Origin: Minisyncoccota bacterium
GTDB taxonomy: Bacteria > Patescibacteriota > Minisyncoccia > UBA6257 > GWB1-50-10
Reading direction: 5' to 3'
Assembly: GCA_020059915.1 (NCBI GenBank)
Contig: JAGVBB010000003.1
Span: forward strand, 40,920-104,919
Length of the DNA stretch: 64,000 bases
The translations under genes were made by a program, and so were the position numbers. The notes beneath the pieces are model-generated. The model was not told the origin of the DNA. It saw only the letters and a list, made by a program, of their open reading frames with translations, and made no database searches. Below, piece by piece: positions 22,651 through 51,442 of this stretch (positions are counted from its first letter, which is position 1; the number at the start of each line of letters is the position of its first letter).

Positions 22651-22732
22651 GCGCGGGTGGCGAAATTGGTAGACGCACTACCTTGAGGTGGTAGCGCCGC
22701 AAGGCTTGGAGGTTCAAATCCTCTCCCGCGCA
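22651..22732 (+). tRNA. tRNA-Leu (anticodon GAG)
   Basis: Cloverleaf with acceptor gcgcggg/cccgcgc, a long variable arm, anticodon loop ttGAGgt, T-loop ggttcaaatcc and discriminator A. No encoded CCA. Confidence 0.85.
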
Positions 22733-22738
22733 CAAAAA

Positions 22739-22772
22739 TAAAAACTGAGTAGTTTACCTGCTCAGTTTTTAT
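22739..22772 (+). terminator. intrinsic terminator after tRNA-Leu
   Basis: Hairpin aactgagtag-tttacc-tgctcagtt followed by a T-run. Confidence 0.5.
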
Positions 22773-22780
22773 TTCTATAT

Positions 22781-22928
22781 ATTGTGAGAGGATTTGAACG
22801 AGAAAGGGGTCGGGAAAACGGGAGTTTTCCCGTGGTGGAAGTACTGAAACCGCAAGGTGTCAGAAAATTTCGTCTGCGAAATTTTGTTCAATTCCCTCTC
22901 CCGCCTGCCTACCGGCAGGCAGGCGCAC
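22781..22928. repeat. tRNA-Leu-derived partial copies plus GC-rich hairpin
   Basis: Inverted 14-nt copy of the T-arm (gagaggatttgaac at 22786-22799). Direct partial copy of the 3' end (gttcaattccctctcccgc at 22886-22904). Nested hairpins, and the palindrome gcctgcctaccggcaggc at 22904-22921. Confidence 0.45.
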
Positions 22929-34310: not shown

Positions 34311-34398
34311 TCAATTTTTAGGGGTAAGTGGATTCTTTTATCTGAGAGTGTGTATTCATTTTTAGGGGTAAGTGGATTCTTCCGTCTGAGGGTGATGT
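34311..34398. repeat. 2 x 44-bp tandem direct repeat
   Basis: tttttaggggtaagtggattctt... repeated twice, with divergence in the 3' third. Confidence 0.6.
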
Positions 34399-37366: not shown

Positions 37367-37481
37367 GACAAATTATTATTGATAGTGTTTCCCCTATTAT
37401 ACCCGATGGCTTGTGTTTTCAAAAACATTTTTGTTGAATATTTCCTTTATTTTTGGTAGTATTCGGTTGTTATTGTGAGAT

Positions 37482-37504
37482 CGCCTACCTTCGGCAGGCA
37501 GGTC
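37482..37504. repeat. GC-rich hairpin motif shared with the tRNA-Leu locus
   Basis: gcctaccttcggcaggcagg versus gcctgcctaccggcaggcagg at 22904-22924. Confidence 0.4.
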
Positions 37505-37525
37505 TAATGGTGAAATAAATAATAT

Positions 37526-37596
37526 TGCGGGATCGTCTAATGGTAGGACAGCGGACTCTGAATCCGTCAATCTTGGTTCGAATCCAGGTCCCGCAG
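37526..37596 (+). tRNA. tRNA-Gln (anticodon CTG)
   Basis: Acceptor tgcggga/tcccgca, anticodon loop ctCTGaa, T-arm cttggttcgaatccagg and discriminator G. No encoded CCA. Confidence 0.8.
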
Positions 37597-37603
37597 CACA
37601 TGA

Positions 37604-37640
37604 AAATCTGGAACACATTTGTTGTGCTCCAGATTTTTAT
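37604..37640 (+). terminator. intrinsic terminator after tRNA-Gln
   Basis: aaaatctggaacac-atttgtt-gtgctccagattttt. Confidence 0.5.
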
Positions 37641-37830
37641 TTGTAGGACACCGGATTCGAACCGCGGGCCGCAGGCTTCGAAGAGAAGCCGAAGGTCTCG
37701 AACTCAGCAGAGTGAGAGGCGAATCCAGGTCCCGCAGCCAATTTTTAAGCGTAAAAATTGCGTCGAAACGAGCACGCTTTCGACGTTGAATCATATTATT
37801 TGCACCGTAAGGTGCAAATATAACAGGAGT
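37641..37830. repeat. tRNA-Gln-derived partial copies and hairpin cluster
   Basis: 19-nt direct copy of the tRNA-Gln 3' end (cgaatccaggtcccgcagc at 37711-37729). Inverted T-arm-like ccggattcgaacc at 37651-37663. Hairpins ggcttcgaagagaagcc, cgtcgaaa...tttcgacg and atttgcacc-gtaa-ggtgcaaat. Confidence 0.45.
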
Positions 37831-37993
37831 ATAAATCACGCAGAAATTAGCACAATTTCTGCGACATTTGTTTAGTATATATTTTTTCCGGATTGTTGAA
37901 TGGCGAATCCAGGTTCAAAAATGCACGCGAATGCGTGCATTTTTTGGTGTTGATAGAATTGTATATTTGTTGGATAATTTATTCAATAAGTAT

Positions 37994-38521
37994 ATGGATT
38001 ATATAGATTTATTAGATAATACTTTTTTTGGAACCCTTTTTGCTGGAAGTCTCATTGCAATTTTGGGATATATCTTTTATAAAAAACAAAAAATATTGGA
38101 TATTTTCTATAGAAAAGAGGAAGAAAAACAAAAAAAGTGTGATATTCTTCTAAAACATTTAAGAATTTCTGTGGATGACTGTAGGGCTCAAGTGGACGTC
38201 CGTAATGGAAAAAATTCTATTGCAAAAAATATATATGATTTTATAGAATCTACGTATTCAAATTTTATTTCTAGATCAAACTCAATTAGATTTCGAAATT
38301 ATGTAGACAAGATTAATGATTCATTTGATGAATTAAAACTTTTTTTAATTCCTGAAGATAAGTACAAAACAGAAAGAAATGAACTTCAAAATTTAATACC
38401 CTCAATCACCTTTTATTTGGCAGGAGTTGATATTTTAGAGGAAAAAAATGTAGTTGAACTTGAAAAAAAATTACAAGAAGCAGAGAATATTTTAAAAAAA
38501 ATTGGAAAAGTAAAAGACTAA
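37994..38521 (+). CDS. hypothetical membrane-anchored coiled-coil protein (island gene 1)
   Basis: Start reassigned to MDYIDLL. One N-terminal TM, then a Lys/Glu-rich helical region. Very AT-rich coding sequence. Confidence 0.4.
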   Translation: MDYIDLLDNTFFGTLFAGSLIAILGYIFYKKQKILDIFYRKEEEKQKKCDILLKHLRISVDDCRAQVDVRNGKNSIAKNIYDFIESTYSNFISRSNSIRFRNYVDKINDSFDELKLFLIPEDKYKTERNELQNLIPSITFYLAGVDILEEKNVVELEKKLQEAENILKKIGKVKD

Positions 38522-38529
38522 TTAGAATC

Positions 38530-39456
38530 ATGGACGAAAAATTAAAATTATTTGTAATGGGGCATGGGAATGCTTTTCATTCGAGGGTTATTTCTAAACT
38601 TCGAACTTTGGGTTGGAGTGTTATGGTAAGTCCATTTTATCGAGATAATGCCACTGGTAAGGCGAGAGAGGCTGATATTATTGCGGAAAAAGAAGTAAAA
38701 TTTGGCATGGATGGAAATTCGAATGCTAGCAATGGTTTCTTTTTAATACGATTAGTTATTGAGTGTAAATATGTTAAGGACCCTATTATTTTTTGGTTTG
38801 ACAAAAAAGATGCCACAGCTACTGAAGAGAGAATTATAAAAGATATTAGTATTTTTCAAAATTCAAAAAAAAATACCTCGATAAAAAAGCACCATTGGTA
38901 TGAGTCAGAAGAAGCCGCAAAATTATTTGCCACTTTCAACCAAAACAAAGAAGAACGACAATTTGAAAATGAAATTATTTTTTCTTCCGTTGATAAAGTC
39001 CTCAATTGTTTGATAAACTATAGATCAAAGCCCTCAATAATCACCTCTCCAATTTCTCCAGACCATTGTTTTTATAAAAAATTAAATCCGATTATTATTA
39101 CGTATCCCATTATTATTTTGGACAGTTTTTCTAAACTATATAGAACAGAAATATCATCACAAACAGATCAAATTACAAATTTAAATGGGGCTGTAAATTT
39201 TGATATAGAAGTTAATTATGAATATGAACAAGGTATTTTTGGCGGCGAACATCCAAAAGTTAGTCATCACCCCTATTTGTCTATTAGAGTAAAAATGCCA
39301 GGAGAAACCGAGCCTGAAGAGCCTAAAACATGGAGTGAATATAAAAATATGAATTTTGAATATTTCTTACTTGACGTCACTTGTATTGAGAAATTAGATG
39401 ACTATTTAGAAAAATTAAAAAATAAGGATTTAAGAGCAGCGCTTAATTTTGTCTAA
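38530..39456 (+). CDS. Mrr-cat (restriction endonuclease type IV-like) domain protein with unknown C-terminal domain (island gene 2)
   Basis: N-terminal 90 aa FHSRVISKLRTLGWSVMVSPFYRDNATGKAREADIIAEKEV...FFLIRLVIECKYV fit the Mrr_cat pattern (D...DIIAEK...ECK is a PD-(D/E)xK core). The C-terminal 190 aa or so are not recognised. Confidence 0.55.
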   Translation: MDEKLKLFVMGHGNAFHSRVISKLRTLGWSVMVSPFYRDNATGKAREADIIAEKEVKFGMDGNSNASNGFFLIRLVIECKYVKDPIIFWFDKKDATATEERIIKDISIFQNSKKNTSIKKHHWYESEEAAKLFATFNQNKEERQFENEIIFSSVDKVLNCLINYRSKPSIITSPISPDHCFYKKLNPIIITYPIIILDSFSKLYRTEISSQTDQITNLNGAVNFDIEVNYEYEQGIFGGEHPKVSHHPYLSIRVKMPGETEPEEPKTWSEYKNMNFEYFLLDVTCIEKLDDYLEKLKNKDLRAALNFV

Positions 39457-39462
39457 TTAATT

Positions 39463-39933
39463 ATGAATGAATTATCTTATAAAGCAGTAGATTTTATAAA
39501 AGAAATTCGAAGTAAAATCCAGTTTCTTGTTACTGTACAAATCTTCTTTTCGGGGGTTATGTATGCTTTTTATGACGCCATTGGTAGTGAGGTGATAAAA
39601 GATGGTACAAATACTCTTTTTTGGGGTATTGGTGTAGCGTTTTGTTTAATAAACTATTTAATGATTGGAATTCTTGAGGAGTCAAAAGAAAGAATGTTTC
39701 GTTGGATAAATATTAGTATCTCAATAAACATTGCATGCTTTATATTACCTTTTGTTATTTTAGCGCTGGTAGTGAGAAATCCTCTTCCCAGTTTTTATAA
39801 CTGGCCGTTTATTATTTCTTTTGGAGGAGCAATTTGGATGCCGATAGTTACATTTTCAACCATTATTGGTGCCTCATATTGGAATATTTTTTTATGGATC
39901 AACAAGTTACTCAAAAATATAACTAAAAAATAA
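39463..39933 (+). CDS. hypothetical 4-TM membrane protein (island gene 3)
   Basis: 156 aa with four predicted TM helices, 6 nt downstream of the nuclease gene. Confidence 0.45.
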   Translation: MNELSYKAVDFIKEIRSKIQFLVTVQIFFSGVMYAFYDAIGSEVIKDGTNTLFWGIGVAFCLINYLMIGILEESKERMFRWINISISINIACFILPFVILALVVRNPLPSFYNWPFIISFGGAIWMPIVTFSTIIGASYWNIFLWINKLLKNITKK

Positions 39934-39941
39934 ATCCAATC

Positions 39942-40298
39942 ATGCTCCACCAAATGCATTTACATCCAAATCCCTTCAGAAAGATAAAAGAGGGATCACA
40001 ACAGATTGAAACACGAATATATGACGAAAAACGTCGTCAGTTTAAAATTGGTGACAGTATTGAATTTATTTCTCGAGAAAATCCCGAAGATAAATTTTTA
40101 GTAGAAATAACAGATCTTATTATCAAACCAACTTTTTCTGAGCTTTTTGATACCTTTCCGTCCGAACTATTTGGGGGAAAAGACAAAGAGGATTTAATGG
40201 GAATCTATAAATATTATTCACCCCAAGAAGAAAAAGACTTTGGTGTGGTGGGTATAAAGGTGCGATTGATTGACTCTCTGGAGCAGAGTAAAAAGTGA
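39942..40298 (+). CDS. ASCH (PUA-like) domain protein
   Basis: MHLHPNPFRKIKEGSQQIETRIYDEKRRQFKIGDSIEF matches the ASCH domain N-terminal beta-barrel pattern (GxKxxExR ... GD). Confidence 0.6.
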   Translation: MLHQMHLHPNPFRKIKEGSQQIETRIYDEKRRQFKIGDSIEFISRENPEDKFLVEITDLIIKPTFSELFDTFPSELFGGKDKEDLMGIYKYYSPQEEKDFGVVGIKVRLIDSLEQSKK

Positions 40299-40313
40299 GA
40301 TTCTGTCGCTAGT

Positions 40314-40346
40314 AAAAAATACCAGTTTTATAGCTGGTATTTTTGT
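40314..40346 (+). terminator. intrinsic terminator at the island end
   Basis: aaaaataccag-ttttatag-ctggtatttttg. Confidence 0.55.
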
Positions 40347-40366
40347 ATATTGTTATAGGTTTTTGT

Positions 40367-41497
40367 TTATCTCCACTCTTTTAGTATTTGAGATTTTATA
40401 TTAAGCGTGGCGCCGAGTGTGATGAGCACAGAGACACATATCGCTATCCATCCAAGGAACGGAATAAGTCCAAGAAGTAGATAGATGATTACTCCCAATA
40501 ATATGGTTTTCCAATTGATAGTGTATTCTGATTTCTTAGATATCCATTTATAGACAAGAGACCCAAGGAATATTGGAGTTACGATCCCTCCATAGATAAA
40601 GAGCATTATGAACGAAAGCAATCCGAGGATGCCGAGAGGAATTCCTATGATAGTGACAAGAAGAATAATTGAAAGCACCGGCAACACAATGATGGTGATG
40701 ATACCGCGACCAAGTTCTTTTAATGGATTGGAAACGGCCTGCTCTACAAGTTCTTTGCTATATTTGCGGAATATAAGTCCCACGAGAAGCGCAGTAACCA
40801 ACAACATCAAGAACTTAGCAAAAAGCGCGAAGGTGAGAAATCCAACTACTCCACTTTTCTTTGCTTTATTCTTTATCTCAGTGAAGGTTGTTTTCCCTTG
40901 CACCTTTGCCCCACTTTCCATACTGGCGGGTTTCATTGCTTCGTATACAAGATTTCCCTTTATATCAGCACCTGATCCCAATGTGAGTTTTTCTGCCTTG
41001 ATATTCACGTTGCCATCAATAGGAGCGTTGATATAGATTTCCCCACCGGCAATTTTTACATTTCCCTTAACCTGAGAATCTATTCGTACCGTTCCGCCAG
41101 CCATTGCCACATCCCCACCAATGGATTTACTTGCAAGGATTATTTGTCCCCCACCAATGAGAACATCACCGCCAATATCCCCGCTTATAGTGATATTTCC
41201 ACCGCCGACACGAACGTCTCCAGAAACCTGACTTAAGATGGTTATATTACCACCAACCACAGACAGATCTTCCGCAATTGGACCGGACACGAGAACAGTA
41301 CCGCCGGCTATCAGAACATCTTTCTCTGCGGCTCCGGCACTTGTTACCGTACCACCGACCATATAGAGGTTTTCTGCGATTTTTTCCTGTGGCGTTAGAG
41401 ATGACTGTTGTCCTGCTCTAAATTCCGCAGCATATATTACGACGGGTAGTATAAATAACAATAAAGCTGATACAAGTGCTTTATTAAGGTTTTTCAT
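40367..41497 (-). CDS. bactofilin-like beta-helical repeat protein with signal peptide and C-terminal 4-TM domain
   Basis: Repeats of GG(N/T)I(T/R)I...GDV(x)IGGG typical of polymer-forming cytoskeletal (DUF583/CcmA) repeats. Start reassigned to MKNLNK. Confidence 0.5.
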   Translation of the reverse strand: MKNLNKALVSALLLFILPVVIYAAEFRAGQQSSLTPQEKIAENLYMVGGTVTSAGAAEKDVLIAGGTVLVSGPIAEDLSVVGGNITILSQVSGDVRVGGGNITISGDIGGDVLIGGGQIILASKSIGGDVAMAGGTVRIDSQVKGNVKIAGGEIYINAPIDGNVNIKAEKLTLGSGADIKGNLVYEAMKPASMESGAKVQGKTTFTEIKNKAKKSGVVGFLTFALFAKFLMLLVTALLVGLIFRKYSKELVEQAVSNPLKELGRGIITIIVLPVLSIILLVTIIGIPLGILGLLSFIMLFIYGGIVTPIFLGSLVYKWISKKSEYTINWKTILLGVIIYLLLGLIPFLGWIAICVSVLITLGATLNIKSQILKEWR

Positions 41498-41563
41498 ATT
41501 ACAAATTGTAACATGTTTAGTGGTATACAAGTAAAACCCATTAATTCTTAGACTTGTATCTTT

Positions 41564-42709
41564 CTATTTCTCCTTTTTTTCAAACTTTAGATATTTCTTT
41601 CCCTGTAATTTTTTTGGTAAATAATCTTTTGCTGAATATTTTTCATACCCCTCTCCATATCCCAACTCTTTCATAAGTTTTGTCGGAGCATTGCGAATTT
41701 CAAGTGGAATGGAAAGATTGCCAAATTCGCGCACATCCGCCTGAGCACTTCGCAGACCATCATATGCACTTCTGTTTTTTGGAGCAAGTGCAAGATAGCT
41801 TACCCCGTGGGCAAGATTAATTGCACATTCTGGTAAACCGATAGTTTCAACGGCGCGGAATACCTCGTTCGCAATAATGAGTGCGGTTGGCGATGCCAAC
41901 CCAATATCTTCTGAGGCAAAGATGACCATGCGTCGTGCAATAAATTTTGGATCTTCTCCCGCTTCTATCATGCGTGCCAAATAATATAATGCCGCGTTTG
42001 GCTGTGAGGCACGCATTGATTTAATGAACGCACTAATAATGTTGTAGTGCTCATCCCCTTTTTTGTCATACCGAATAAACGCATGTTGTAGTGTTTCTTC
42101 CAGCGTCTTTTTAGTTATCTTGTTATACAATGTGTGCGCTGTATCAAGTAGCCCGATCATTTGACGCGCATCACCGTTTGCAAACCGTACCAACCACTCC
42201 TTCCCTGTTGCATCAACTTTAATTTTTGTGTGTTCAATGATTGTTTTGAGATTATCTTCACTTAATTCTTTCAATATGAAAACCTTACAACGAGAAAGAA
42301 GTGGAGAAATAACTTCAAAGCTTGGATTTTCCGTAGTTGCACCAATGAGTGTGATCAATCCGCTCTCCACATATGGCAACAAAAAATCTTGCTGTGCTTT
42401 GTTAAATCGATGGATTTCATCAAGAAAAATAACTATAGGTTTCAATCGTGGTCCACCTTTTACAATTTCGCGAATATCTTCTTTTCCAGCGGAGACTGCA
42501 GAAAGTTCAAACAACTCCACATCAAGTGTGTTTGCATATATGCGTGCCAGTGTTGTTTTTCCACATCCGGGAGGTCCCCACAAAATAAATGAAAACAAAT
42601 GTTTCCCCTCAATTGCTTTTTTGAGTGGCTTCCCCTCACCAACGAGATGTTCTTGTCCGATAAATCCGGAAAGATCTTTAGGTCGTAATGCTGCTGCTAA
42701 GGGTTCCAT
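41564..42709 (-). CDS. rarA: replication-associated recombination protein A (AAA+ ATPase)
   Basis: Walker A ILWGPPGCGKTTLA, Walker B IFLDEIHRF and the MgsA C-terminal domain. Confidence 0.85.
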   Translation of the reverse strand: MEPLAAALRPKDLSGFIGQEHLVGEGKPLKKAIEGKHLFSFILWGPPGCGKTTLARIYANTLDVELFELSAVSAGKEDIREIVKGGPRLKPIVIFLDEIHRFNKAQQDFLLPYVESGLITLIGATTENPSFEVISPLLSRCKVFILKELSEDNLKTIIEHTKIKVDATGKEWLVRFANGDARQMIGLLDTAHTLYNKITKKTLEETLQHAFIRYDKKGDEHYNIISAFIKSMRASQPNAALYYLARMIEAGEDPKFIARRMVIFASEDIGLASPTALIIANEVFRAVETIGLPECAINLAHGVSYLALAPKNRSAYDGLRSAQADVREFGNLSIPLEIRNAPTKLMKELGYGEGYEKYSAKDYLPKKLQGKKYLKFEKKEK

Positions 42710-42844
42710 ATGTCTCCATATATCTTACTTCGTTTTATTAAAACAAAAAAATTGACAATGATAGAAATTGTTGTGTGTATACATCTATTTCTTTTGTAGT
42801 TAGCTGTATAAATAAAAAAAGCCCCGCTATGATAGCGGGGTTTG

Positions 42845-44263
42845 TTAGTTTCCTAGCAAATAGTGTATTGCGTCAGAGGCAGAATACGAATCTTCTGCAT
42901 GTGCCATAAGAAACGGGAGAAAACTGACATCGTCTCCCATGGTAACAATCGGGGGCTCTTCCTCGTCGCCAAGATTTACCGTGGTCATAAGGCCATTACA
43001 GAGGCATCCACGACCGATAGCGTCCTTGAGATCCCCTCCTTTTGCAACATATTTATCAAATGGTTCAGCAGAACAACGATATCCAATTTTTCCATCTGGT
43101 CGCTCATAGGGAGAGACAAGTTCGCCTTGATCACAAATCCGTTTTCGGGATTCATAGATTTCCGGTTCCGATATGGTTCCTTCTAATAGTATTTTTTTGA
43201 ATGGAAATCCGGTTGGTGAAATACGCATATCGGTCTTTATCACAAGCTTACCCTCATATCCTTGTTTGCGAATTCTTCTGCGAAGTATTTCATTCATATC
43301 AGAATCATCTGAAAGCGCAAAGATAGAGCCTGCTTGAATACCCGATGCACCAATAGAAAGCGCCCATGCAAGTTTTTCTGGAGATGCTTGAGAGCCACCA
43401 ATCCAAAATGGAATACCCAGAGAAGCAAGTTCTGCATAATCAACCTTGTCTTTTTCTCCATAGATTGGTTCTGGTTCTCCCAATTCATTAAAAATAAGTT
43501 TTCGTGGAGGTGCATTATGTCCGCCGGCAGTTGGCTCTTCCACAACAAATGCGGTGATACTTCCTGCGGGCAATTTTTTTACAAAAATATTTGCAAGTAA
43601 GTTTGAGGAAATAATAGGAATAAAACCCGGCTTTTTCATCTTAGGTAATGGAGCACCGAAAAATGTTTCAGGATGAAATGACATTGTGTAACTTGTTATA
43701 TTTTTTCCAATAACAGGCAACCGATAGTGTGCTTCTCTCCCTTCTGAAATATCTTCCAGAAGTTTGGGAATCTGAAGTGGAATACCCGCGCCCATCGTTA
43801 CATAGTCAACGCCAGCAAGCATTGCGCCAGTGATTGCATACACGTGTGGCATCGCAACTTTTTCAAGATAGTTAATACTTATTGGGTTTGAATTATTTTC
43901 CTTTGCAAGCCATACCAATGCAAAGTTTGAACATACAGTAAGAGAGATAAGAAGATGATTGGGATTCACGGTGAATACAGGAATTGCTTTATATGGAGTT
44001 CCTTTTGGAATCCCCCCCTTTACGAAATATGTTTTTATGATCTTTTCCGCTACCGATGGAAACGGAAAGTGTGAAAGCGCGCGTCGAACGTGACCACCTG
44101 GATCACCTTTTTGCAATATGCGCGGAACAAGTCGTTCAAGGACAACACCAGAAACGGTGCCAAGTCCTCCGTTCATTGAGACATTCCGAGGGAGACGCCA
44201 GCCAGAAACACCAACTCCCATCCCACCCTGGATTATCTTACGGAAGATAAGAGTGTTTTTCAT
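42845..44263 (-). CDS. nitronate monooxygenase / FabK-like FMN-dependent TIM-barrel oxidoreductase
   Basis: N-terminal IIQGGMGVGVSG and C-terminal IGGSQASPEKLAWALSIGASGIQAGSIFA typical of the NMO family. Confidence 0.55.
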   Translation of the reverse strand: MKNTLIFRKIIQGGMGVGVSGWRLPRNVSMNGGLGTVSGVVLERLVPRILQKGDPGGHVRRALSHFPFPSVAEKIIKTYFVKGGIPKGTPYKAIPVFTVNPNHLLISLTVCSNFALVWLAKENNSNPISINYLEKVAMPHVYAITGAMLAGVDYVTMGAGIPLQIPKLLEDISEGREAHYRLPVIGKNITSYTMSFHPETFFGAPLPKMKKPGFIPIISSNLLANIFVKKLPAGSITAFVVEEPTAGGHNAPPRKLIFNELGEPEPIYGEKDKVDYAELASLGIPFWIGGSQASPEKLAWALSIGASGIQAGSIFALSDDSDMNEILRRRIRKQGYEGKLVIKTDMRISPTGFPFKKILLEGTISEPEIYESRKRICDQGELVSPYERPDGKIGYRCSAEPFDKYVAKGGDLKDAIGRGCLCNGLMTTVNLGDEEEPPIVTMGDDVSFLPFLMAHAEDSYSASDAIHYLLGN

Positions 44264-44471
44264 GACCTTTCTCCTTTCTAAATTATTATTGATCTATCTA
44301 TATAATAAGGCTTTATAGAGGTTATGCAAAAGGATGATTTTATAACCTACGACCTACAACCAACAACGGGAGATGGAGATGGGACAACCGACGACCGACA
44401 AGATAGCTGGACGGACTAGTGGCTTTATACTATTGTATGTTTAACATTAACAACATTCCTAGGAGGATGAT

Positions 44472-45017
44472 ATGGGAACGAATTTGCCGTTACAGGAGAA
44501 AATTGAGGAGATGCGAACCTATGCGGAGTTGGTGCTCCAGATACCGCAGATTAAAAATAAAAAAACAACCGGAGTATATGTGCGTGTCTATAATCGGGAA
44601 ACAACAAATCTGGTTATTGGTGAAACGTTTGGGACATTCGCACATGGATACCTGAAAGAATCAAATTCATCACACCAAAAAGCACGCTGGTTATATCTCC
44701 ATCCGCATGCAATTTCGACGACAGAGAGTAATGGCGAGGTTGATGCTGGTGGCATTAAGGGCAAGAACCACATTATTGGTGTTTCTGGATTTGATGTTTT
44801 TAATTATAATTCCGCACTCGCGATACTATTACTTGCCTGTTTTGAACATGAACCGAGTAATGGTTCTTGGCATGTGATGCAGGAATATGCAAAGCGAGCA
44901 CAATGTGAAACAGAACTTAATTGGCTTCTTGAACACATGCAAGCACTCCCCATTCCATCACGATTTGCGACCGTTGTTACTAAATTTTTTTCCTGGTTAC
45001 ATAAAGAAAAGAAGTAA
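44472..45017 (+). CDS. hypothetical protein, paralog family member C
   Basis: AGGAGG SD. Core HPHAISTTESNGEVDAGGIKGKNHIIGVSGFDVFNYNSALAILLLACFEHEP. The terminator atcccgcc-caagag-gcgggattttt at 45022-45050 follows. Confidence 0.5.
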   Translation: MGTNLPLQEKIEEMRTYAELVLQIPQIKNKKTTGVYVRVYNRETTNLVIGETFGTFAHGYLKESNSSHQKARWLYLHPHAISTTESNGEVDAGGIKGKNHIIGVSGFDVFNYNSALAILLLACFEHEPSNGSWHVMQEYAKRAQCETELNWLLEHMQALPIPSRFATVVTKFFSWLHKEKK

Positions 45018-45102
45018 CACATATCCCGCCCAAGAGGCGGGATTTTTATATATTGTGCCAATTATTTATTTGTTGGATAATTTTGTTATATTGTATATCA
45101 AA

Positions 45103-45549
45103 ATGAAATTCACGCTTGAACGGTTTATTGAGGCAAACAATAATGGAACTTTGAAAGAACTTACCATTGAATATTTATTAACCGAAGGAAAGAATAAACA
45201 TCTCGCGGATCATTTATCTAACAACAAAATAATTTGGGTTGATCTTATTGAATACCCACTTAGACAATTAAGAAGAGAAATGGGATATGAGGGCGAGGGA
45301 CTTGTGTTTAGTGAGAACAAAGAACAATGGGATCAACGGGTTGGACTCTTAAAAAATGACATACAACAGGGATATACTCCTCCCCCGCTTATTGCTACCG
45401 ACTTTTGGGATGATGTACATCTTGCTGATGGTTCACACAGACATGAGGCGTTTGTGCAACTTAATTGGAGTAAATATTGGACTATATTCTTCATAAAAAA
45501 TGAGGCCAATAAAAAGATAATTTTGGATATGAATTTGTTAGGGAATTAA
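45103..45549 (+). CDS. ParB/sulfiredoxin-like nuclease-domain protein
   Basis: PPPLIATDFWDDVHLADGSHRHEAF resembles the ParB N-terminal domain motif (DGhHR..A). Start reassigned to MKFTLERF at 45103. Confidence 0.5.
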   Translation: MKFTLERFIEANNNGTLKELTIEYLLTEGKNKHLADHLSNNKIIWVDLIEYPLRQLRREMGYEGEGLVFSENKEQWDQRVGLLKNDIQQGYTPPPLIATDFWDDVHLADGSHRHEAFVQLNWSKYWTIFFIKNEANKKIILDMNLLGN

Positions 45550-46646
45550 ACAAATCCAAGAACTACAGCAATTCCCATAACAAGCATGAGCACTCCCGCA
45601 ATTAGGTGAAGTAAACGCAAGCGTTTCTGACGTATTTTTTCCGCCATAGACGGATCAAACCCTTTGTATGTTGCAAATGTGATAAAAAGCATTGGCAGGA
45701 TAAAAATGACATTGTATAGGAACAAATACCACAACGCTTGTGCAAGATAGGTTTTCTTTGCGAGCAGTCCCAAAATCACGATATATGGACCGCTTGTGCA
45801 CGGAAGGAGAAACAAACTTACTACAAATCCAATCGCAAATGCTCCCCATGGATTTGTTATTGAGTTGATAAGCCCCTTCAACTTGGGTCGCCAACTTAGT
45901 GGTACCTCCATAAGAATTCCCTTCCCATACCAGAAATAATCCTTCAGATTGAGTAATCCGATAATAATTGCGAGCCAGCCGATAATTGTATAAAACCACA
46001 AAGAAACATTACCGATGCTGAGTGCTTGATACAAACCAAGCCCCATAAGAAAATATGAGATAAATATGGAAAGTGAAAATGCAAGACCTGCGCGAAGCGC
46101 TCTTTTTCTGTTTCCCGATGCCAATATTGCTGTCATAAGAATAATAAGCACTGCAAATTCGCATGGATTTACTGCATCAACCGCACTTCCCATAATTACT
46201 GCAGCCGCGGTGATTCCGATGTCCTGATGCTCTTCTTTTTCTATAAGTGGTTCAGAAAGATCTTTAGAAGATCCAAGAAAGTTCTCTGCTTCTTGAAAAA
46301 AATTATCTATAATCGGTCTATCGCCCATAAATACTTTTTCTCCCATTATCAATGCTGGTACCCCGCGTCCTTCTGCGGGAATATTCATACGATCAAGTAG
46401 CTCGTTATACAAAACGGCATTCTCACGATTGAAATAAATTTCCTTTTTTTCAATTGGATAGTTTTCAAAAATTTGTTTGTCTTCAAAATATTTTTCAACA
46501 ACCGCACAATGAGGACATCCTGTCCCATAAAAGAAATATATTTTGTTTTGTGCAGTTGTTATATCTGTAACAGTGAAAAATATTATGTATACAAGTATTG
46601 CTATAGCACACACGCGCCACAGTATGTTAGATTTTGCCATCTTCAT
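45546..46646 (-). CDS. thioredoxin-fold / CcdA(DsbD)-family thiol-disulfide membrane protein fusion
   Basis: N-terminal CPHC thioredoxin-like domain after a TM anchor. C-terminal CcdA-like membrane domain with the AVNPCEFAVL motif. Confidence 0.65.
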   Translation of the reverse strand: MKMAKSNILWRVCAIAILVYIIFFTVTDITTAQNKIYFFYGTGCPHCAVVEKYFEDKQIFENYPIEKKEIYFNRENAVLYNELLDRMNIPAEGRGVPALIMGEKVFMGDRPIIDNFFQEAENFLGSSKDLSEPLIEKEEHQDIGITAAAVIMGSAVDAVNPCEFAVLIILMTAILASGNRKRALRAGLAFSLSIFISYFLMGLGLYQALSIGNVSLWFYTIIGWLAIIIGLLNLKDYFWYGKGILMEVPLSWRPKLKGLINSITNPWGAFAIGFVVSLFLLPCTSGPYIVILGLLAKKTYLAQALWYLFLYNVIFILPMLFITFATYKGFDPSMAEKIRQKRLRLLHLIAGVLMLVMGIAVVLGFV

Positions 46647-46926
46647 GGTTTATTATTTTTATTGCTTTTCCGTGTATCAATGCATCTCCAATTTTTTCAT
46701 AGGTTGCACGAAGAATTCTTTGGTATGTACTTTGTGAAGTACGCATTTTTTTTGCCGCATCAATTTGATCCAGATTATTAATGTGTCGCAAACGATAGGA
46801 TTCAAGCTCCTCGATAGATATTTCAACAATCTTCAGATTTCGCAACGGAACTCCTTGCGGTTTAAAGTATAGAATATTTGGTTTGAAGGTGATTCCAGAA
46901 CACAAACAACGTCTTGGTCTTGCCAT
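46627..46926 (-). CDS. DUF134 (UPF0251) predicted DNA-binding protein
   Basis: MARPRRCLC...FKPQGVP N-terminus and a sigma-70 region-4-like HTH (QIDAAKKMRTSQSTYQRIL). Confidence 0.6.
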   Translation of the reverse strand: MARPRRCLCSGITFKPNILYFKPQGVPLRNLKIVEISIEELESYRLRHINNLDQIDAAKKMRTSQSTYQRILRATYEKIGDALIHGKAIKIINHEDGKI

Positions 46927-47002
46927 ATGTTTATATTAATATAATATCGTTTTTAAAAACCACACCAACCCTTCTTAAATAAGAAGGGTTGGTATTTTTT
47001 AT

Positions 47003-47245
47003 CTACTGATTCTTTAGAATAGCCTTTTCTTCACGAATGGCTACCAACTCATCCTCAAGCATTTTTTCCTGTTCTTCTAGAGTATTGAGTTTGTTTGTAG
47101 GAGAAATATATCTCCTGAATCCAAATCCCCGACCACAGCCACGACAACCCCAACCACGTCCCATTTTTTCTCCATTACAAGAACCAGCACCTCTTCCCGT
47201 CATAGGACCTTGTCCTAATGGACCTGTTGTGTCTAATTTTGGCAT
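47003..47245 (-). CDS. DUF5320-family protein
   Basis: MPKLDTTGPLGQGPMTGRGAGSCNG N-terminal motif and a C-terminal coiled coil. This family is a typical partner of DUF134. Confidence 0.55.
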   Translation of the reverse strand: MPKLDTTGPLGQGPMTGRGAGSCNGEKMGRGWGCRGCGRGFGFRRYISPTNKLNTLEEQEKMLEDELVAIREEKAILKNQ

Positions 47246-47289
47246 GTTGTTATTATTTTTTTGTATAGCGGCCTTTTATTTGTTATGTC

Positions 47290-47319
47290 TCTAGTTATGA
47301 ATATATACCCATAACTAGA
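47290..47319. promoter_or_regulatory. 10-bp inverted repeat candidate operator
   Basis: tctagttatg-N10-cataactaga, about 45 bp upstream of the DUF5320 start codon. Confidence 0.3.
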
Positions 47320-47591
47320 AGTTGTCAAATCAAAAGTTCTTTTCTATCTGATTATTAGTAATGACCCTAAAAAACAAAAAACCCATCTTGCGATGGAATC
47401 TTTGTAGACCTAAGAAAGTACGTTGACGTTTTGCAACATCAAATGAAATTATAACTCACGAAACAATTTCTCCCTTTCATAGATCTACTTTAAGTATGGG
47501 CCATTGGGGAGTTTGTACAATGATACGTCTGTGGATAACTTTTGGTCTGTTTTTTATGATTTTTGCTGTGGATTTTCTTATCTACATAAAA

Positions 47592-47625
47592 ATCAACGCC
47601 CCATTGGGGCGTTTGTAAAAATTGA
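47592..47625 (-). terminator. hairpin terminator
   Basis: aacgccccattggggcgtt hairpin flanked by A/T runs, at the end of the 47627-48232 gene. Confidence 0.45.
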
Positions 47626-47626
47626 T

Positions 47627-48232
47627 TTATTGTGGAGTGTAGCGTATTCCCATTGAATACAATGGAAATTTGTTTGTTATATCGTATCCAGTAGAAGCAT
47701 AACACTTCCATTCCCTATTCACTGATTGTGTGAATTTTAGTTCTATGCATCGTTTCCATGTCTGCGTGACCCCAAGTGTTGCAAAAGTTGCATCGAAGTT
47801 GAAAGCGGAAATTGTAACTGAGTGGTAATTAATAAACTCATTCAGCGTCCATTCAGGTTTATCAGGGAGGCCGGCCATTATGCCGTACCAGTGGAGTGTC
47901 GAGAGAAATTCAAATGGTTGAATGGCAACTTGAAGTCCGCCCCACACAGCATCCTTATAAAATCCGGCAGTTGCACCAAGTTTTACCATTGGAATGAGTT
48001 TTGTTAACTGAAATCTTCCATGAACACGAGTTTGATTTCCGGTTATTCTTAGTGTTGTATTTTCACTTTTAAATGCAACATTAATATCAACACCGCTTGA
48101 AATCACACCTCTTCCAAAACTCACGTCAACGCTTTCAAATTTCAATGCATTTTCATCTTGTGCAAATGCATGATTTGGAAAAACACACATGGTAACAAGT
48201 ACCAAAAAAAGAATTGCAAATAACTTTTTCAA
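47627..48232 (-). CDS. hypothetical secreted beta-rich protein
   Basis: Signal peptide MKKLFAILFLVLVTMCVFPNHAFA. Alternating hydrophobic pattern. Ends in aromatic residues. Confidence 0.4.
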   Translation of the reverse strand: MKKLFAILFLVLVTMCVFPNHAFAQDENALKFESVDVSFGRGVISSGVDINVAFKSENTTLRITGNQTRVHGRFQLTKLIPMVKLGATAGFYKDAVWGGLQVAIQPFEFLSTLHWYGIMAGLPDKPEWTLNEFINYHSVTISAFNFDATFATLGVTQTWKRCIELKFTQSVNREWKCYASTGYDITNKFPLYSMGIRYTPQ

Positions 48233-48395
48233 TTTCTATCCCCATTTGTTAATGATATATGGATTATATCACCAAATATATAATTTGTCAACCTTACAAA
48301 TATTTATATTCTTATAGGATAATGTTTTTTATTGTGAATTACTTTGATTTTTGTGATACACTGATACAGATGAGTAGTGAATGCAGATTCACTAG

Positions 48396-48992
48396 GTGAT
48401 CAGAATCAACATGAAAATAAATACAAAGGGCTCAGAGTGGCGTCCCCAAGAAGATGGGGTCGATTTTTTTGGTAAGTTTTGGGAAAAAAGTTGGACATAT
48501 ATAAAGACGGTTGTTAATGTACTTCACGAGTCAGTCCTCATTCTTGATAAGGATCTTCGCATTATAGCGGGAAACGAAACCTTCTATAGGACGTTTGATG
48601 TGACACAAGAAAAAACAGAAGGGAAGGTTATTTATGAACTTGGAAATGGCCAATGGGATATTCCCATTCTTCGAAAATTTTTTGATGAGATTTTGAAAGA
48701 GCATAGTTTTTTTAAGGGATTCCAAGTCGCTCATGACTTCCCTTCTATTGGACGTAAGGTAATGATTTTAAACGCACGTGAAATTCATATCAAAGATGAT
48801 ACTTCTTTAGAAAGTTCCTCCCCCATTATTGTGCTTGCCATAGAAGATGTTACGGAAATGATGGTTGTTGCAGAAACGCTTGCACACCAGACAAAACAAA
48901 TTGAGGCAAGGTTTAGTGTACGGACGCACATGTTAGAAGTTCAAATAGAAAAATTACAAAGTGAGCTCAATAATTTTAAAAATAAACCCTAG
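48396..48992 (+). CDS. PAS-domain protein
   Basis: VLILDKDLRIIAGNETFYRTFDV...GKVIYEL fits the PAS fold. C-terminal coiled coil. The terminator aaaccctagtaaaatagggcttttt follows. Confidence 0.55.
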   Translation: MIRINMKINTKGSEWRPQEDGVDFFGKFWEKSWTYIKTVVNVLHESVLILDKDLRIIAGNETFYRTFDVTQEKTEGKVIYELGNGQWDIPILRKFFDEILKEHSFFKGFQVAHDFPSIGRKVMILNAREIHIKDDTSLESSSPIIVLAIEDVTEMMVVAETLAHQTKQIEARFSVRTHMLEVQIEKLQSELNNFKNKP

Positions 48993-49023
48993 TAAAATAG
49001 GGCTTTTTATATATTATTAAAGA

Positions 49024-49674
49024 ATGATTCGGGCAGTTTTATTTGATATGGACGGGCTTATGTTTGACACGGAGACGGCATATTCCATTGTTCAAACAGA
49101 AATGTTCAAAAAACGAGGCGTGGAGTTTACTGTCGAGATAAAGCGCCCGCTTATGGGGAAACGCGCCAATGAGGTTATGGAAAGAATTATTGAGGTATGG
49201 GGAACACATGAGAAGGTAGAAGATGTGCTTTTCGAACAGGATGAATTACTCAAAAAAGTTTTTCAAGAATCAGTAAAAAAATTGGAGGGACTAGATGAAA
49301 TTATCCAATTTCTTGTTGAAAATAATGTGCGAACATGTATTGGCACATCATCAAGAAAATTTTTAGTAGATATACTTTTAGAGAAATATAACTTATCCGA
49401 TATGTTTGAATTTGTTGTTTCTGGTGACATGGTTGCAAAAGGAAAACCGGATCCAGAGATCTACACCACGTGTGTTAAAAAGCTTAATATTCCCCCTTCT
49501 AATTGTCTTGTATTGGAAGACTCATTGAATGGTGTGCGGGCAGGGGTTACTGCTGGATGCCATGTTTGTGCAATTCCTTCTGAATATACCCGCGATGAAA
49601 ATTTCTTTATAGCAACGTTTGTTGTTGAATCTTTGGCAGATAAGAAAATAAAAGATTTCATTTTAAGTAATTAA
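49024..49674 (+). CDS. HAD-superfamily hydrolase (subfamily IA, beta-phosphoglucomutase-like)
   Basis: Motif I VLFDMDGLMFDTE, motif II GTSS and motif III/IV K...LEDSLNG. Confidence 0.8.
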   Translation: MIRAVLFDMDGLMFDTETAYSIVQTEMFKKRGVEFTVEIKRPLMGKRANEVMERIIEVWGTHEKVEDVLFEQDELLKKVFQESVKKLEGLDEIIQFLVENNVRTCIGTSSRKFLVDILLEKYNLSDMFEFVVSGDMVAKGKPDPEIYTTCVKKLNIPPSNCLVLEDSLNGVRAGVTAGCHVCAIPSEYTRDENFFIATFVVESLADKKIKDFILSN

Positions 49675-49676
49675 TT

Positions 49677-49934
49677 GTGAACTATTTCACTTATATTCTG
49701 AAATGTGCTGATGGAACGCTTTATACCGGTTCTACGAATAATTTGGATAAGAGGATAAAACAGCATAACAATCTGAAATCGGGAGCTCATTATACAAAAA
49801 TTAGAAGGCCTGTTTCCTTGTTATATTTTGAAACATTCAAGACGCCTGGGGAGGCAAAAAAACGTGAAAATGAGATTAAACGCTGGCGTCGTGACAAGAA
49901 ACTTGTTTTAATTAGTACTCACTATGAAACATAA
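49677..49934 (+). CDS. GIY-YIG nuclease-family protein (UPF0213)
   Basis: FTYILKCADGTLYTGSTNNLDKRIKQHN with the GIY...YIG-like pattern. GTG start. Confidence 0.75.
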   Translation: MNYFTYILKCADGTLYTGSTNNLDKRIKQHNNLKSGAHYTKIRRPVSLLYFETFKTPGEAKKRENEIKRWRRDKKLVLISTHYET

Positions 49935-50655
49935 AAGCTATATAATTTCTGCGGTATTTTTATTTGTTTGTGCAATAGTCATTTTTTATCTGTACAACAC
50001 CAACAACATAACAAGACAGGAGGAAGAGACTGTTATGTGCACCATGGATGCACTTATTTGTCCTGATGGAAGCGGAGTCGGGAGATCGGGAAAGGATTGT
50101 GCGTTCTCCCCTTGTTCGAATGGAAACCTGTTTATTGGAGAATTCCAACAGGATTCAAACGGATTTCGCCTTATTATGGAATCCCCAAAAGGAATTGGGA
50201 ACGAGACTTCGTATGTGATGCCACTCCAGATAACAGTGACAAATGTATTAAAAGAATTTATCGGAAAGAAGGTGCAGGTGCGCGGGAGTTTTGTTACTGG
50301 AAACACGTTACACGTTGATTCAATGGAAGAAGCGAACGATTCAATACTTGAAACAGGAACGGTACCAATGGGAAAAACAATATACATTAATAGAGTTTTT
50401 GTGACACTCCACAGTGTGGTGCAGGACAGCAGGTGTCCGATTGACGCACAATGCATAGAAGCGGGAGCTATCACCGCGCGCGTGACACTCAAGAGCGACA
50501 CCAATACAGAAACATTTAATATGCCATCCGATGAGGTACCGCATAAATTTGACTCTTATCAGGTTTCAATTATTGATATCCAACCACCACGCATGTCAGG
50601 AAAAGAAACAAATCAAAACGATTATGTTCTTACTTTCAAGGTAACATCGCTATAA
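49924..50655 (+). CDS. hypothetical membrane-anchored Cys-containing protein
   Basis: N-terminal TM anchor and several Cys pairs. No recognised motif. Confidence 0.4.
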   Translation: MKHKSYIISAVFLFVCAIVIFYLYNTNNITRQEEETVMCTMDALICPDGSGVGRSGKDCAFSPCSNGNLFIGEFQQDSNGFRLIMESPKGIGNETSYVMPLQITVTNVLKEFIGKKVQVRGSFVTGNTLHVDSMEEANDSILETGTVPMGKTIYINRVFVTLHSVVQDSRCPIDAQCIEAGAITARVTLKSDTNTETFNMPSDEVPHKFDSYQVSIIDIQPPRMSGKETNQNDYVLTFKVTSL

Positions 50656-51351
50656 ATGAAATATTATTTAAAACTACTTTCACTCCCCCTTTCGTTATTG
50701 GCGCTTTTTCTTTCACTCAATATTATTTGGCGCGTGTTTGATTTGCCACCCGCAGAAGTTTTTGCACAACAGGTGGAGGTGTGGTTTAGATCATATGGTC
50801 TCATCGTATTATTTATCAGTGCGTTTATAGAAGGAGTACTCTTGTTTGGAGGATACTTTCCTGGAGTGTTTGTGATATTCATAAGTATCGTATTGTCCCA
50901 ATCAATTCCTGATGCAATACTACGTGTTGCCGTCGCTTCGGTTGGTCTCTTTCTTGCACATGTATTCAATTATGCGTTAGGAAAATATGGATGGCATAGA
51001 TTGCTTTCACGATTCGGGCTCAAACATTCAATCGCACAAGCGCAAGAAAATTTAGTTGCACATGGAGCACTTGCGATTTTCAGCAGTTATTGGTTGCCGA
51101 GTATTGGAACACTGACCGATACTGCCGCAGGAATATTGCAGATGCCATTCAAGAAATTTTTTGTTGCATCTCTCCTTTCTGTTATTTTTTGGGATTCATT
51201 AGTAGGAACAATTGTATATATTATTGGACCAAAATCGCTCGCCATTGCATCTTCCGGAGGTATAACAGAATTGATTATTCAGTTTTCAATTGTTGCAATC
51301 TGGATAGCTGTTTTACTTTTATTGGATTGGAAAAAGAGAAGAATTATATAG
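50656..51351 (+). CDS. DedA/SNARE-associated-like membrane protein
   Basis: FIEGVLLFGGYFPGVFVIFI resembles the DedA E...PGE/G motif region. Multi-TM. Confidence 0.45.
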   Translation: MKYYLKLLSLPLSLLALFLSLNIIWRVFDLPPAEVFAQQVEVWFRSYGLIVLFISAFIEGVLLFGGYFPGVFVIFISIVLSQSIPDAILRVAVASVGLFLAHVFNYALGKYGWHRLLSRFGLKHSIAQAQENLVAHGALAIFSSYWLPSIGTLTDTAAGILQMPFKKFFVASLLSVIFWDSLVGTIVYIIGPKSLAIASSGGITELIIQFSIVAIWIAVLLLLDWKKRRII

Positions 51352-51442
51352 TTTTGTAGTAATTTAGTTGCTAAAAGGGAGTAAAACAACTACACTGAAC
51401 ATCTAGTAACAAGAACCCACCACGGTGGGATTTCGTTTGTCT

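Follow-up and report, generated by a model that had tools for sequence, protein, structure and literature searches.

A folded 141-bp module behind tRNA-Gln(CTG) of a Candidatus Parcubacteria genome, a possible tRNA-targeted mobile cassette

A stretch of 64,000 nucleotides from a Candidatus Parcubacteria genome (Candidate Phyla Radiation (CPR), or Patescibacteria; contig JAGVBB010000003.1, positions 40,920 to 104,919), termed here 'the window', harbors two transfer RNA (tRNA) genes according to ARAGORN, and behind each of them lies a displaced copy of that gene's own 3' end. The element considered in this report is the non-coding unit of 141 bp (37598-37738) that lies between tRNA-Gln(CTG) and its original 3' end. 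It was compared with 120 CPR tRNA-Gln loci, which were collected by a metagenome scan with the conserved arms of the window's tRNA-Gln; comparison loci are designated by L-numbers. The features found at the window locus are these:

37526-37596, plus strand: intact tRNA-Gln(CTG) gene (Rfam RF00005, 61.8 bits; ARAGORN).
37579-37597, plus strand: D1, a copy of the 19-mer CGAATCCAGGTCCCGCAGC, starting at C56 in the T loop of tRNA-Gln and extending one base beyond the discriminator.
37600-37645, plus strand: hairpin resembling an intrinsic terminator (aaaatctggaacac...gtgctccagatttt and a T run), within the insert (sequence; minimum free energy (MFE) fold).
37641-37663, plus strand: antisense arm, a degenerate reverse complement of the last ~22 nt of tRNA-Gln (sequence; inverted match).
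37674-37690, plus strand: core hairpin Ha, GGCUUC-GAAGA-GAAGCC, 100% paired in the window, L105 and L039, with 3 compensatory pairs and an invariant loop (GAAGA).
37695-37720, plus strand: core hairpin Hb, GUCUC-GA-ACUC-AGCA-GAGU-GA-GAGGC, 100% paired, with 3 compensatory pairs.
37720-37738, plus strand: D2, the exact second copy of the 19-mer and the displaced original 3' end of tRNA-Gln, running into a CCA at 37738-37740 (whole feature 37720-37740).
37739-37797, plus strand: original trailer of tRNA-Gln, with hairpins aatttttaagcgtaaaaatt and gcgtcgaaa...tttcgacg; relatives have homologous trailers.

The 19-mer occurs exactly twice in the 64 kb, against an expectation of 0 from 100 shuffles. 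A preliminary description of this DNA had already assigned tRNA-Gln(CTG) to 37526-37596 and an inverted, T-arm-like segment, ccggattcgaacc, to 37651-37663, and both assignments hold. The exact 19-nt repeat of the tRNA 3' end that it reported is equally real, but the second copy lies at 37720-37738 rather than at 37711-37729 (9 nt off); the hairpins that it stacked after the repeat all exist, but one of them (ggcttc-gaaga-gaagcc, 37674-37690) precedes the copy, between the antisense arm and D2. The inverted segment is a section of the longer antisense copy (37641-37663), which is composed of a complement of the acceptor (ttgtaggac) and a complement of the T stem and T loop (accggattcgaacc), and which contains an exact 11-nt inverted match to tRNA-Gln, GGATTCGAACC. 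In Hb the loop AGCA and both GA internal-loop dinucleotides are invariant and U.G pairs are conserved; at the position of the terminator, L039 has a hairpin of other sequence.

Evidence for mobility of the 141-bp unit takes the form of presence and absence compared between genomes. From its first base onward, D2 together with the trailer aligns with the tRNA 3' end and trailer of four other loci (L093, L100, L053 and L122), where the counterpart of window 37720-37797 is contiguous with tRNA-Gln (83-90% identity). Because D2 is thus followed by a trailer of ~60 nt that in those four loci directly follows the tRNA, the repeat brackets only the 141-bp insert. One further locus, L077, has the upstream Na/Ca-exchanger gene in common with the window (81% at the amino acid level) and has no insert. 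Conversely, L105 contains the window's tRNA-Gln and insert at 98.2% identity over 218 nt, in flanks unrelated to those of the window, with the insert kept at 141 bp and 97-98% identical; the region upstream of it and its trailer (CCAagtcg...ctcgctcgag) are orthologous to those of L031, in which the tRNA runs directly into that trailer and the site is therefore empty. The pairing of L105 with L031, and of the window with its empty relatives, thus places one 141-bp unit in two contexts, each with an empty counterpart. A scan of contigs with the neighboring Na/Ca exchanger returned one relative, at 48% identity and without tRNA-Gln, and synteny sought through MgsA (L002, L003) was not conserved. 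A two-hairpin trailer motif (gatttttaaRcgtaaaaatc and cgtcgaaa...tttcgacg) is conserved behind tRNA-Gln in the window (37739-37797) and in L093, L053, L100, L122, L025 and L102; in L093 and L053 it occurs twice, 150-200 nt apart.

When every tRNA in all of the loci was scanned for copies of its own 3' end, one layout kept recurring, in which the tRNA is followed (in most cases after a terminator) by an antisense copy of its 3' end, then by hairpins and finally by a copy of that end in sense orientation. A 'module' was defined as an antisense copy of the adjacent tRNA 3' end at most ~100 nt downstream, followed by hairpins and then by the sense copy. In the window this order is found behind both tRNAs, at 37641-37663, 37674-37720 and 37720-37738 for Gln, and at 22786-22799, the core and 22886-22928 for Leu. 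The modules, by tRNA species, are as follows:

tRNA-Gln: window, L105, L039, L044, L045, L058, L069, L078, L091, L094, L103.
tRNA-Asp: L023, L037, L065, L091.
tRNA-Thr: L091, L113.
tRNA-Met: L091.
tRNA-Gly: L060.
tRNA-Leu: window.

Modules are roughly 100-180 nt long, with a flanking direct repeat of 14-43 nt, and several may occur on one contig; that of L091 has them at four tRNAs (Thr, Asp, Met and Gln). An inverted 11-mer of a tRNA's own 3' end, at most 250 nt downstream, was found for 19 of 158 tRNAs, compared with 4 of 1738 non-self comparisons. The recurrent, tRNA-directed process that the preliminary description proposed is thus borne out by one architecture behind at least six tRNA species in CPR contigs, and of the alternatives it offered, 'a family of tRNA-derived elements' fits best, given those own and non-self counts. 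Both arms match the adjacent tRNA in every module, and in fuller copies the antisense part is in three pieces (the complement of the acceptor, an inserted hairpin, and the complement of the T stem and T loop). The cores, by contrast with the arms, fall into a few conserved structural types:

Type A: window tRNA-Leu, L058, L044, L045, L113 tRNA-Thr.
Type B: window tRNA-Gln, L105, L039.
Type C: L091 tRNA-Thr, L091 tRNA-Met, L065 tRNA-Asp, L023 tRNA-Asp, L060 tRNA-Gly, L094 tRNA-Gln, L069 tRNA-Gln.
Type D: L091 tRNA-Asp.

The second module of the window, to which the preliminary description had drawn a parallel that proves real, has an exact 14-nt inverted match to its tRNA, the antisense sequence GAGAGGATTTGAAC at 22786-22799, and consists of:

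22651-22928, plus strand: tRNA-Leu(GAG) module, with the tRNA (22651-22732), a terminator, the antisense arm (22786-22799) and a type-A core (22800-22885).
22886-22904 and 22924-22928, plus strand: copy of the tRNA-Leu 3' end, interrupted by a hairpin (22904-22923).

The core of this tRNA-Leu module is 93.7% identical over 63 nt to that of the tRNA-Gln module of L058 (nhmmer E 2e-26), with both arms switched to match the local tRNA; no other observation argues as strongly that core and arms are modules in their own right. Homology between the core types was not detected: the type-C covariance model finds neither A nor B, and BLAST and nhmmer keep the types apart. Exact-pattern scans of IMG/VR gave no extra copies of types A and B, and for type C only chance matches in GC-rich coding DNA. 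In L105 a solo 3' part of a type-A module (6800-6905, plus strand), ending in ccaggtcccgcagCCA, lies upstream of, and divergent from, the tRNA-Gln that bears the type-B module, a juxtaposition that suggests inversion or nested events. Full-text literature searches found no account of such a family, which is apparently undescribed; the closest publication (PMC13011429) deals with Patescibacteria tRNAs that have group I introns in the anticodon loop.

In the predicted plus strand fold of the tRNA-Gln module, the antisense segment pairs with D2 (37720-37738), using G.U pairs, and closes the two hairpins (-41.7 kcal/mol, z = -3.5); on the tRNA-sense strand, antisense arm and displaced 3' end would thus form a helix resembling an acceptor and T stem around a hairpin core. 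Full modules fold far below shuffled sequence in energy. For type B (alignment A3: window, L105 and L039) 89% of cells are paired and 9 pairs show compensatory change; none of 500 shuffles reached the observed values, and in slid controls 32-50% were paired. The whole type-C modules are predicted to fold into an acceptor-like closing stem and three hairpins, with a continuous 3' strand and an interrupted 5' strand, as in a tRNA; 19 of the 25 predicted pairs show compensatory changes, while GGCGGAAC, GUGAGCCGGUGCCCAG and CGAGGG are invariant. The type-C covariance model found 8 copies in 712 kb, every one beside a tRNA and none belonging to another type. Across module helices there are 10 G.U and 0 A.C juxtapositions, which points to the tRNA-sense strand as the strand that folds.

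The reading favored here, to which we would give roughly an even chance, is that 37598-37738 is a small, non-autonomous, structured mobile cassette that targets tRNA genes and was inserted into the 3' end of tRNA-Gln(CTG). The final 19 nt of the tRNA are provided afresh by the module, together with a terminator hairpin, an antisense copy and two covarying hairpins, and the module abuts the original 3' end with its CCA and trailer. Entry of such a cassette would proceed by recombination inside the conserved sequence of a tRNA gene, with the tRNA body as the left site of homology or recombination and the segment from the T loop to the 3' end as the right one; on entry the gene would be regenerated and its old 3' end displaced, and the module could be lost again by recombination between the two 19-mers. 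Selection might maintain the fold, either as a recombination substrate or as a tRNA-like RNA produced by read-through of the terminator.

Several observations weigh against this reading. The polarity of the change is deduced rather than proven, since 19-nt direct repeats would allow precise loss of the 141-bp unit, and such a deletion in the 'empty' genomes could also produce the pattern of presence and absence. L093 and L053 have two copies of the trailer motif taken here for the original flank, which may therefore not be purely ancestral. Type B comprises three sequences only, two of them nearly identical. No trans-acting enzyme for the module was identified, and genes for GIY-YIG proteins, found right beside tRNA-Gln at about 25 of the 120 loci, show no enrichment in the vicinity of modules (2/16 versus 34/108 loci). 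Transcription from the tRNA promoter would meet a strong terminator before it reached the module. Finally, the constant match between antisense arm and target tRNA is not accounted for by passive spread through homology; it suggests that the pairing has a function or that a copying mechanism operates.

Beyond the trailer, GC content falls to 29-30% from ~37900 to ~40300, so that the AT-rich island noted in the preliminary description is real. It has four plus strand open reading frames (ORFs), and the sole recognizable function in the ORF block (37994-40298) is an ASCH domain (39942-40298; PHROG 'RNA-binding protein', E 5e-20); searches of the island ORFs against Pfam, PHROGs and PADLOC returned that domain only and no recombinase family, and no homologues of the block were found in the 120 related loci. 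Directly in front of the promoter-like site of these ORFs (37950-37978) stand what appears to be a small remnant of a module and its own terminator. This remnant, and a fragment on the other side of tRNA-Gln, are as follows:

37474-37513, plus strand: degenerate 5' fragment of tRNA-Gln (tgtgagatcg / tctaatggtga), split by a hairpin, cctaccttcggcaggcagg, at 37484-37502 (sequence).
37888-37946, plus strand: core-less remnant (ccggattg..ttgaatgg cgaatccaggtt), then a terminator-like hairpin at ~37917-37946 (11-mer match; sequence).

Within the remnant, a third, partial copy of the tRNA-Gln 3' end, cgaatccaggt, occupies 37904-37914 with ccggatt before it, and 37888-37917 (ccggatt...ggcgaatccaggtt) would on this ground be a core-less mini-copy of the module. 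The 5' fragment ends 13 nt before the gene start; comparable displaced 5' fragments, ending in ...tctaatgg, are found in L053, L083, L058 and L006. Hairpins related to cctaccttcggcaggcagg occur at window 22904-22923 (within the displaced tRNA-Leu copy), in L078, and upstream of tRNA-Gln in L012. Direct repeats also occur elsewhere in the window, at 1470-1526 and 1602-1658 (57 nt, 91% identity, spacing 132 nt) and at 34314-34350 and 34358-34394 (37 nt, 89% identity, spacing 44 nt).

Other small elements use the same neighborhoods. The GIY-YIG genes that adjoin tRNA-Gln encode ~80 amino acids; where they lie upstream (L053, L083, L006, L066, L076, L038) they are accompanied by a displaced 5' tRNA fragment with its breakpoint in the D loop (...tctaatgg|), and where they lie downstream (L080, L110, L092, L072, L059, L025, L102, L054 and others) they are followed by a degenerate 3' copy that starts in the T loop. 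Their appearance is that of homing-type cassettes in which a partial duplication restores the gene. The only GIY-YIG match in the window, at 49671-49931, corresponds to the ORF at 49677-49934 (plus strand), and no ORF at 37400-38000 has such a match; the protein (85 amino acids; PF01541, E 2e-19) is a GIY-YIG catalytic domain and nothing more, falls into one subfamily with the ORFs flanking tRNA-Gln in other CPR loci, and is encoded between two ORFs away from any tRNA. A 32-kb contig of another assembly, L127, overlaps the left end of the window, as it encodes a protein identical to that of window 408-1403; at L127 3197-3348, some 7 kb to the left of the window start, tRNA-Gln(TTG) is followed after 43 nt by an exact 37-nt copy of its center (from the 3' side of the D arm to the T loop), a partial duplication with breakpoints in the D loop and T loop. 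L077 contains a large serine recombinase ORF (Resolvase, Recombinase and Zn ribbon domains) on the minus strand, 1434-2760 nt from the tRNA start, and a large serine recombinase downstream of tRNA-Gln was recognized in L095 by sequence similarity only; the two probably represent a different class of element that uses the same neighborhood.

The proximity of the island invites the interpretation, already made in the preliminary description, that the displaced 19-mer is an att boundary. In its general form, the 19-mers would be the attL and attR sites of a tyrosine-integrase island with crossover in the T loop, and the 141 bp would be left over from an island now decayed, or else the AT-rich island would be the one that the repeat delimits. 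The block of identity does run from the T loop to the 3' end with regeneration of the gene, as in the Islander paradigm (PMC4383910), the region downstream of tRNA-Gln varies among relatives, and large serine recombinase genes lie downstream of it in L077 and L095 (confirmed by Pfam in L077 only). Nevertheless the repeat brackets 141 bp only, and the conserved trailer separates D2 from the island. The far edge of the island (40200-40480, inspected by eye), where a second copy had been anticipated, has a terminator and no tRNA fragment, and neither the 19-mer (up to 3 mismatches) nor its 11-nt start (up to 1 mismatch) recurs in 38000-52000. Pfam searches of the surrounding ORFs found no integrase within ~5 kb of either tRNA. 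With the trailer intervening, the far edge without a repeat and no recombinase among the island ORFs, the att reading of the island is unsupported, and the 141-bp module is not its att site or border; a further copy of CGAATCCAGGT beyond the island, along with a recombinase, is what would bear on that reading. Random decay, moreover, would not yield the same 141 bp at 97-98% in another genome and covarying hairpins in L039, and att sites do not have an antisense arm or recur with the same core types at different tRNAs; the integrase explanation in any form is therefore considered highly unlikely. A nuclease has a slightly better claim: the module might be mobilized in trans by a homing-type enzyme that cuts tRNA genes (a candidate being the catalytic-domain-only GIY-YIG protein), with subsequent repair of the double-strand break from a module-bearing donor, which would be a specific version of the mobile-cassette model. 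The adjoining GIY-YIG genes and their fragments displaced at the D loop and T loop in about 25 of the 120 tRNA-Gln loci follow the same gene-restoring logic, the genome of the window encodes such a protein (49677-49934), and SegB of phage T4 is a GIY-YIG homing enzyme that acts in a tRNA gene cluster (PMC2330249). Given the lack of local association noted above (2/16 versus 34/108), and non-coding parts of GIY-YIG cassettes that contain neither antisense arm nor module cores, this proposal appears distinctly improbable, and a link between modules and GIY-YIG genes is speculative.

The same structural features can be read without mobility, in which case selection would keep the module as a functional small RNA, a mimic of the acceptor/T-arm half of the neighboring tRNA; its role might be, for example, to mark read-through transcripts for processing by RNase P/RNase Z ('punctuation'), or to decoy or regulate enzymes that recognize that acceptor end. 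The helices covary while loop and junction nucleotides are invariant (GAAGA, AGCA and tandem GA in type B; GGCGGAAC, GUGAGCCGGUGCCCAG and CGAGGG in type C), G.U is favored over A.C on the tRNA-sense strand, the acceptor-like closing stem and three hairpins of type C have the strand continuity of a tRNA, a substitution in the displaced copy of L105 (gtccTgcag) creates a Watson-Crick pair with the antisense arm, and several module-bearing tRNAs occur per contig (four in L091, both in the window). Yet a canonical terminator precedes the module, room for a promoter of its own is lacking (a scan of both strands of the module found none that is convincing), related genomes do without it, the acceptor-complement arms are degenerate in the window copies, and the CCA after the copy reflects only the ancestral gene, because empty sites also encode CCA; a purely RNA function is thus possible but rather unlikely. 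A tentative and somewhat bolder proposal, unlikely as it stands, is that the modules are CPR-specific programmable elements in which a conserved core (types A-D) is combined with antisense and sense arms of the target tRNA, so that arm pairing would set either the insertion site (guide-like, with a trans-acting enzyme) or the identity of an RNA that mimics the tRNA acceptor. Finally, the segment might lack both function and mobility, having arisen as a tandem copy of tRNA-Gln that then decayed, or incidentally through template switching at the terminator palindrome. GTAGGACA (37643-37650) matches the region of the D arm and position 26 of the tRNA, a gapped alignment to the anticodon arm is possible, and pseudo-tRNA copies occur in L015, L016, L080 and L127; but the tRNA covariance model is blank over the segment even at E<=10, the exact inverted matches of 11 nt (Gln) and 14 nt (Leu) are not produced by a direct duplicate, and the cores are conserved and covarying across genomes and tRNA species, all of which renders this explanation scarcely credible. 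The second full tRNA that the preliminary description named as grounds for an ordinary tandem remnant is likewise missing, one tRNA only being found in 37400-38100 (Rfam, E<=10).

Several specific identities were considered and rejected. A second tRNA or pseudogene, suggested by the gapped anticodon-arm alignment, was set aside on the blank tRNA model and the exact inverted matches. A tmRNA or permuted tmRNA, suggested by a likeness of GGAUUCGAACGGGA to the tmRNA 5' region, was dismissed after ARAGORN and Rfam found none; the likeness arises because this sequence is a complement of the T loop. Known ribozymes, riboswitches and other Rfam families were discarded in the same way: at the gathering score or E<=1, Rfam 15 has no family for the modules of the window, L091, L065, L023, L060 and L113, giving only chance matches to miRNAs and leaders far below threshold, and Intron_gpI has no match at E<=10.

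If the module is a mobile cassette as favored here, it is a variant on the known theme of gene-restoring insertions in tRNA genes, with some chance that a mechanism programmed by base pairing is involved. tRNA genes are classic landing sites of mobile DNA, and displaced tRNA fragments are routinely taken as the borders of islands. The fragment described here borders a folded module of 141 bp, and automatic island callers would therefore misplace att sites in these genomes. That tiny CPR genomes retain several modules, GIY-YIG cassettes and tRNA fragments near their tRNA genes points to an active, lineage-specific traffic of small elements. Should the arms act by base pairing, the modules would constitute a new example of nucleic-acid-guided targeting or of tRNA mimicry, in a family that would be compact and easily testable (~100 nt with swappable arms); the programmable version, if true, would have no described counterpart among the mechanisms of bacterial mobile elements or small RNAs.

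Among known systems, the tyrosine-integrase islands and prophages in tRNA and tmRNA genes that define the Islander paradigm (PMC4383910) offer an obvious precedent. Like the module, they enter the 3' part of a tRNA, bring a replacement 3' end that leaves the gene intact, and create a direct repeat from the displaced fragment. Such islands, however, measure kilobases rather than 141 bp, whereas the module has no integrase or genes and instead has an internal antisense copy of its target, a covarying hairpin core, and the same core type at different tRNA species with re-matched arms. GIY-YIG cassettes (those of CPR tRNA-Gln and T4 SegB, PMC2330249) are closer in scale, being small, present or absent among relatives, and located at the same sites (the D loop and T loop of tRNA-Gln) with a gene-restoring partial duplication; unlike them, the module has no ORF, no sequence in common with their non-coding parts, and no local association with them. 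Miniature inverted-repeat transposable elements (MITEs) and palindromic elements of the repetitive extragenic palindrome (REP) type are also short, non-coding and rich in hairpins; they have inverted repeats at their borders, occur several times per genome and are missing in some relatives. Unlike those of MITEs, the inverted repeats of the module are copies of the adjacent tRNA instead of fixed ends, and its direct repeat is 14-43 nt of tRNA and not a short target-site duplication.

Folded single-strand recombination sites provide another comparison, as exemplified by the attC site of integrons and the attP hairpin of CTX phage. There, as in the module, a single strand imitates a recombination target by folding into a duplex through two imperfect inverted arms spaced by 50-100 nt, and the stems covary as the sequence drifts; unlike the case of attC, no IntI/Xer-type recombinase or cassette array was seen with the module, and the duplex imitated is the T-arm/acceptor segment of a tRNA. 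The tRNA-like RNAs, which include the tRNA-like domain of tmRNA, the viral 3' tRNA-like structures and mascRNA, also use an acceptor-like stem, identical to that of a real tRNA, to close a larger structured insert, with the 3' strand running into the discriminator and, for Gln, CCA. In contrast with those molecules, the module has no T arm or D loop, is blank to ARAGORN and Rfam, and occurs once per neighboring tRNA species instead of as one dedicated gene. The group I introns of Patescibacteria tRNAs (PMC13011429), finally, are structured non-coding insertions in tRNA genes of the same phylum, and the antisense arm could pair with both 'exon' sides in the manner of an internal guide sequence. 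In those introns a full ribozyme interrupts the anticodon loop (35/36), whereas the module is too small and has no Rfam group I match, and it needs no splicing because a complete tRNA precedes it.

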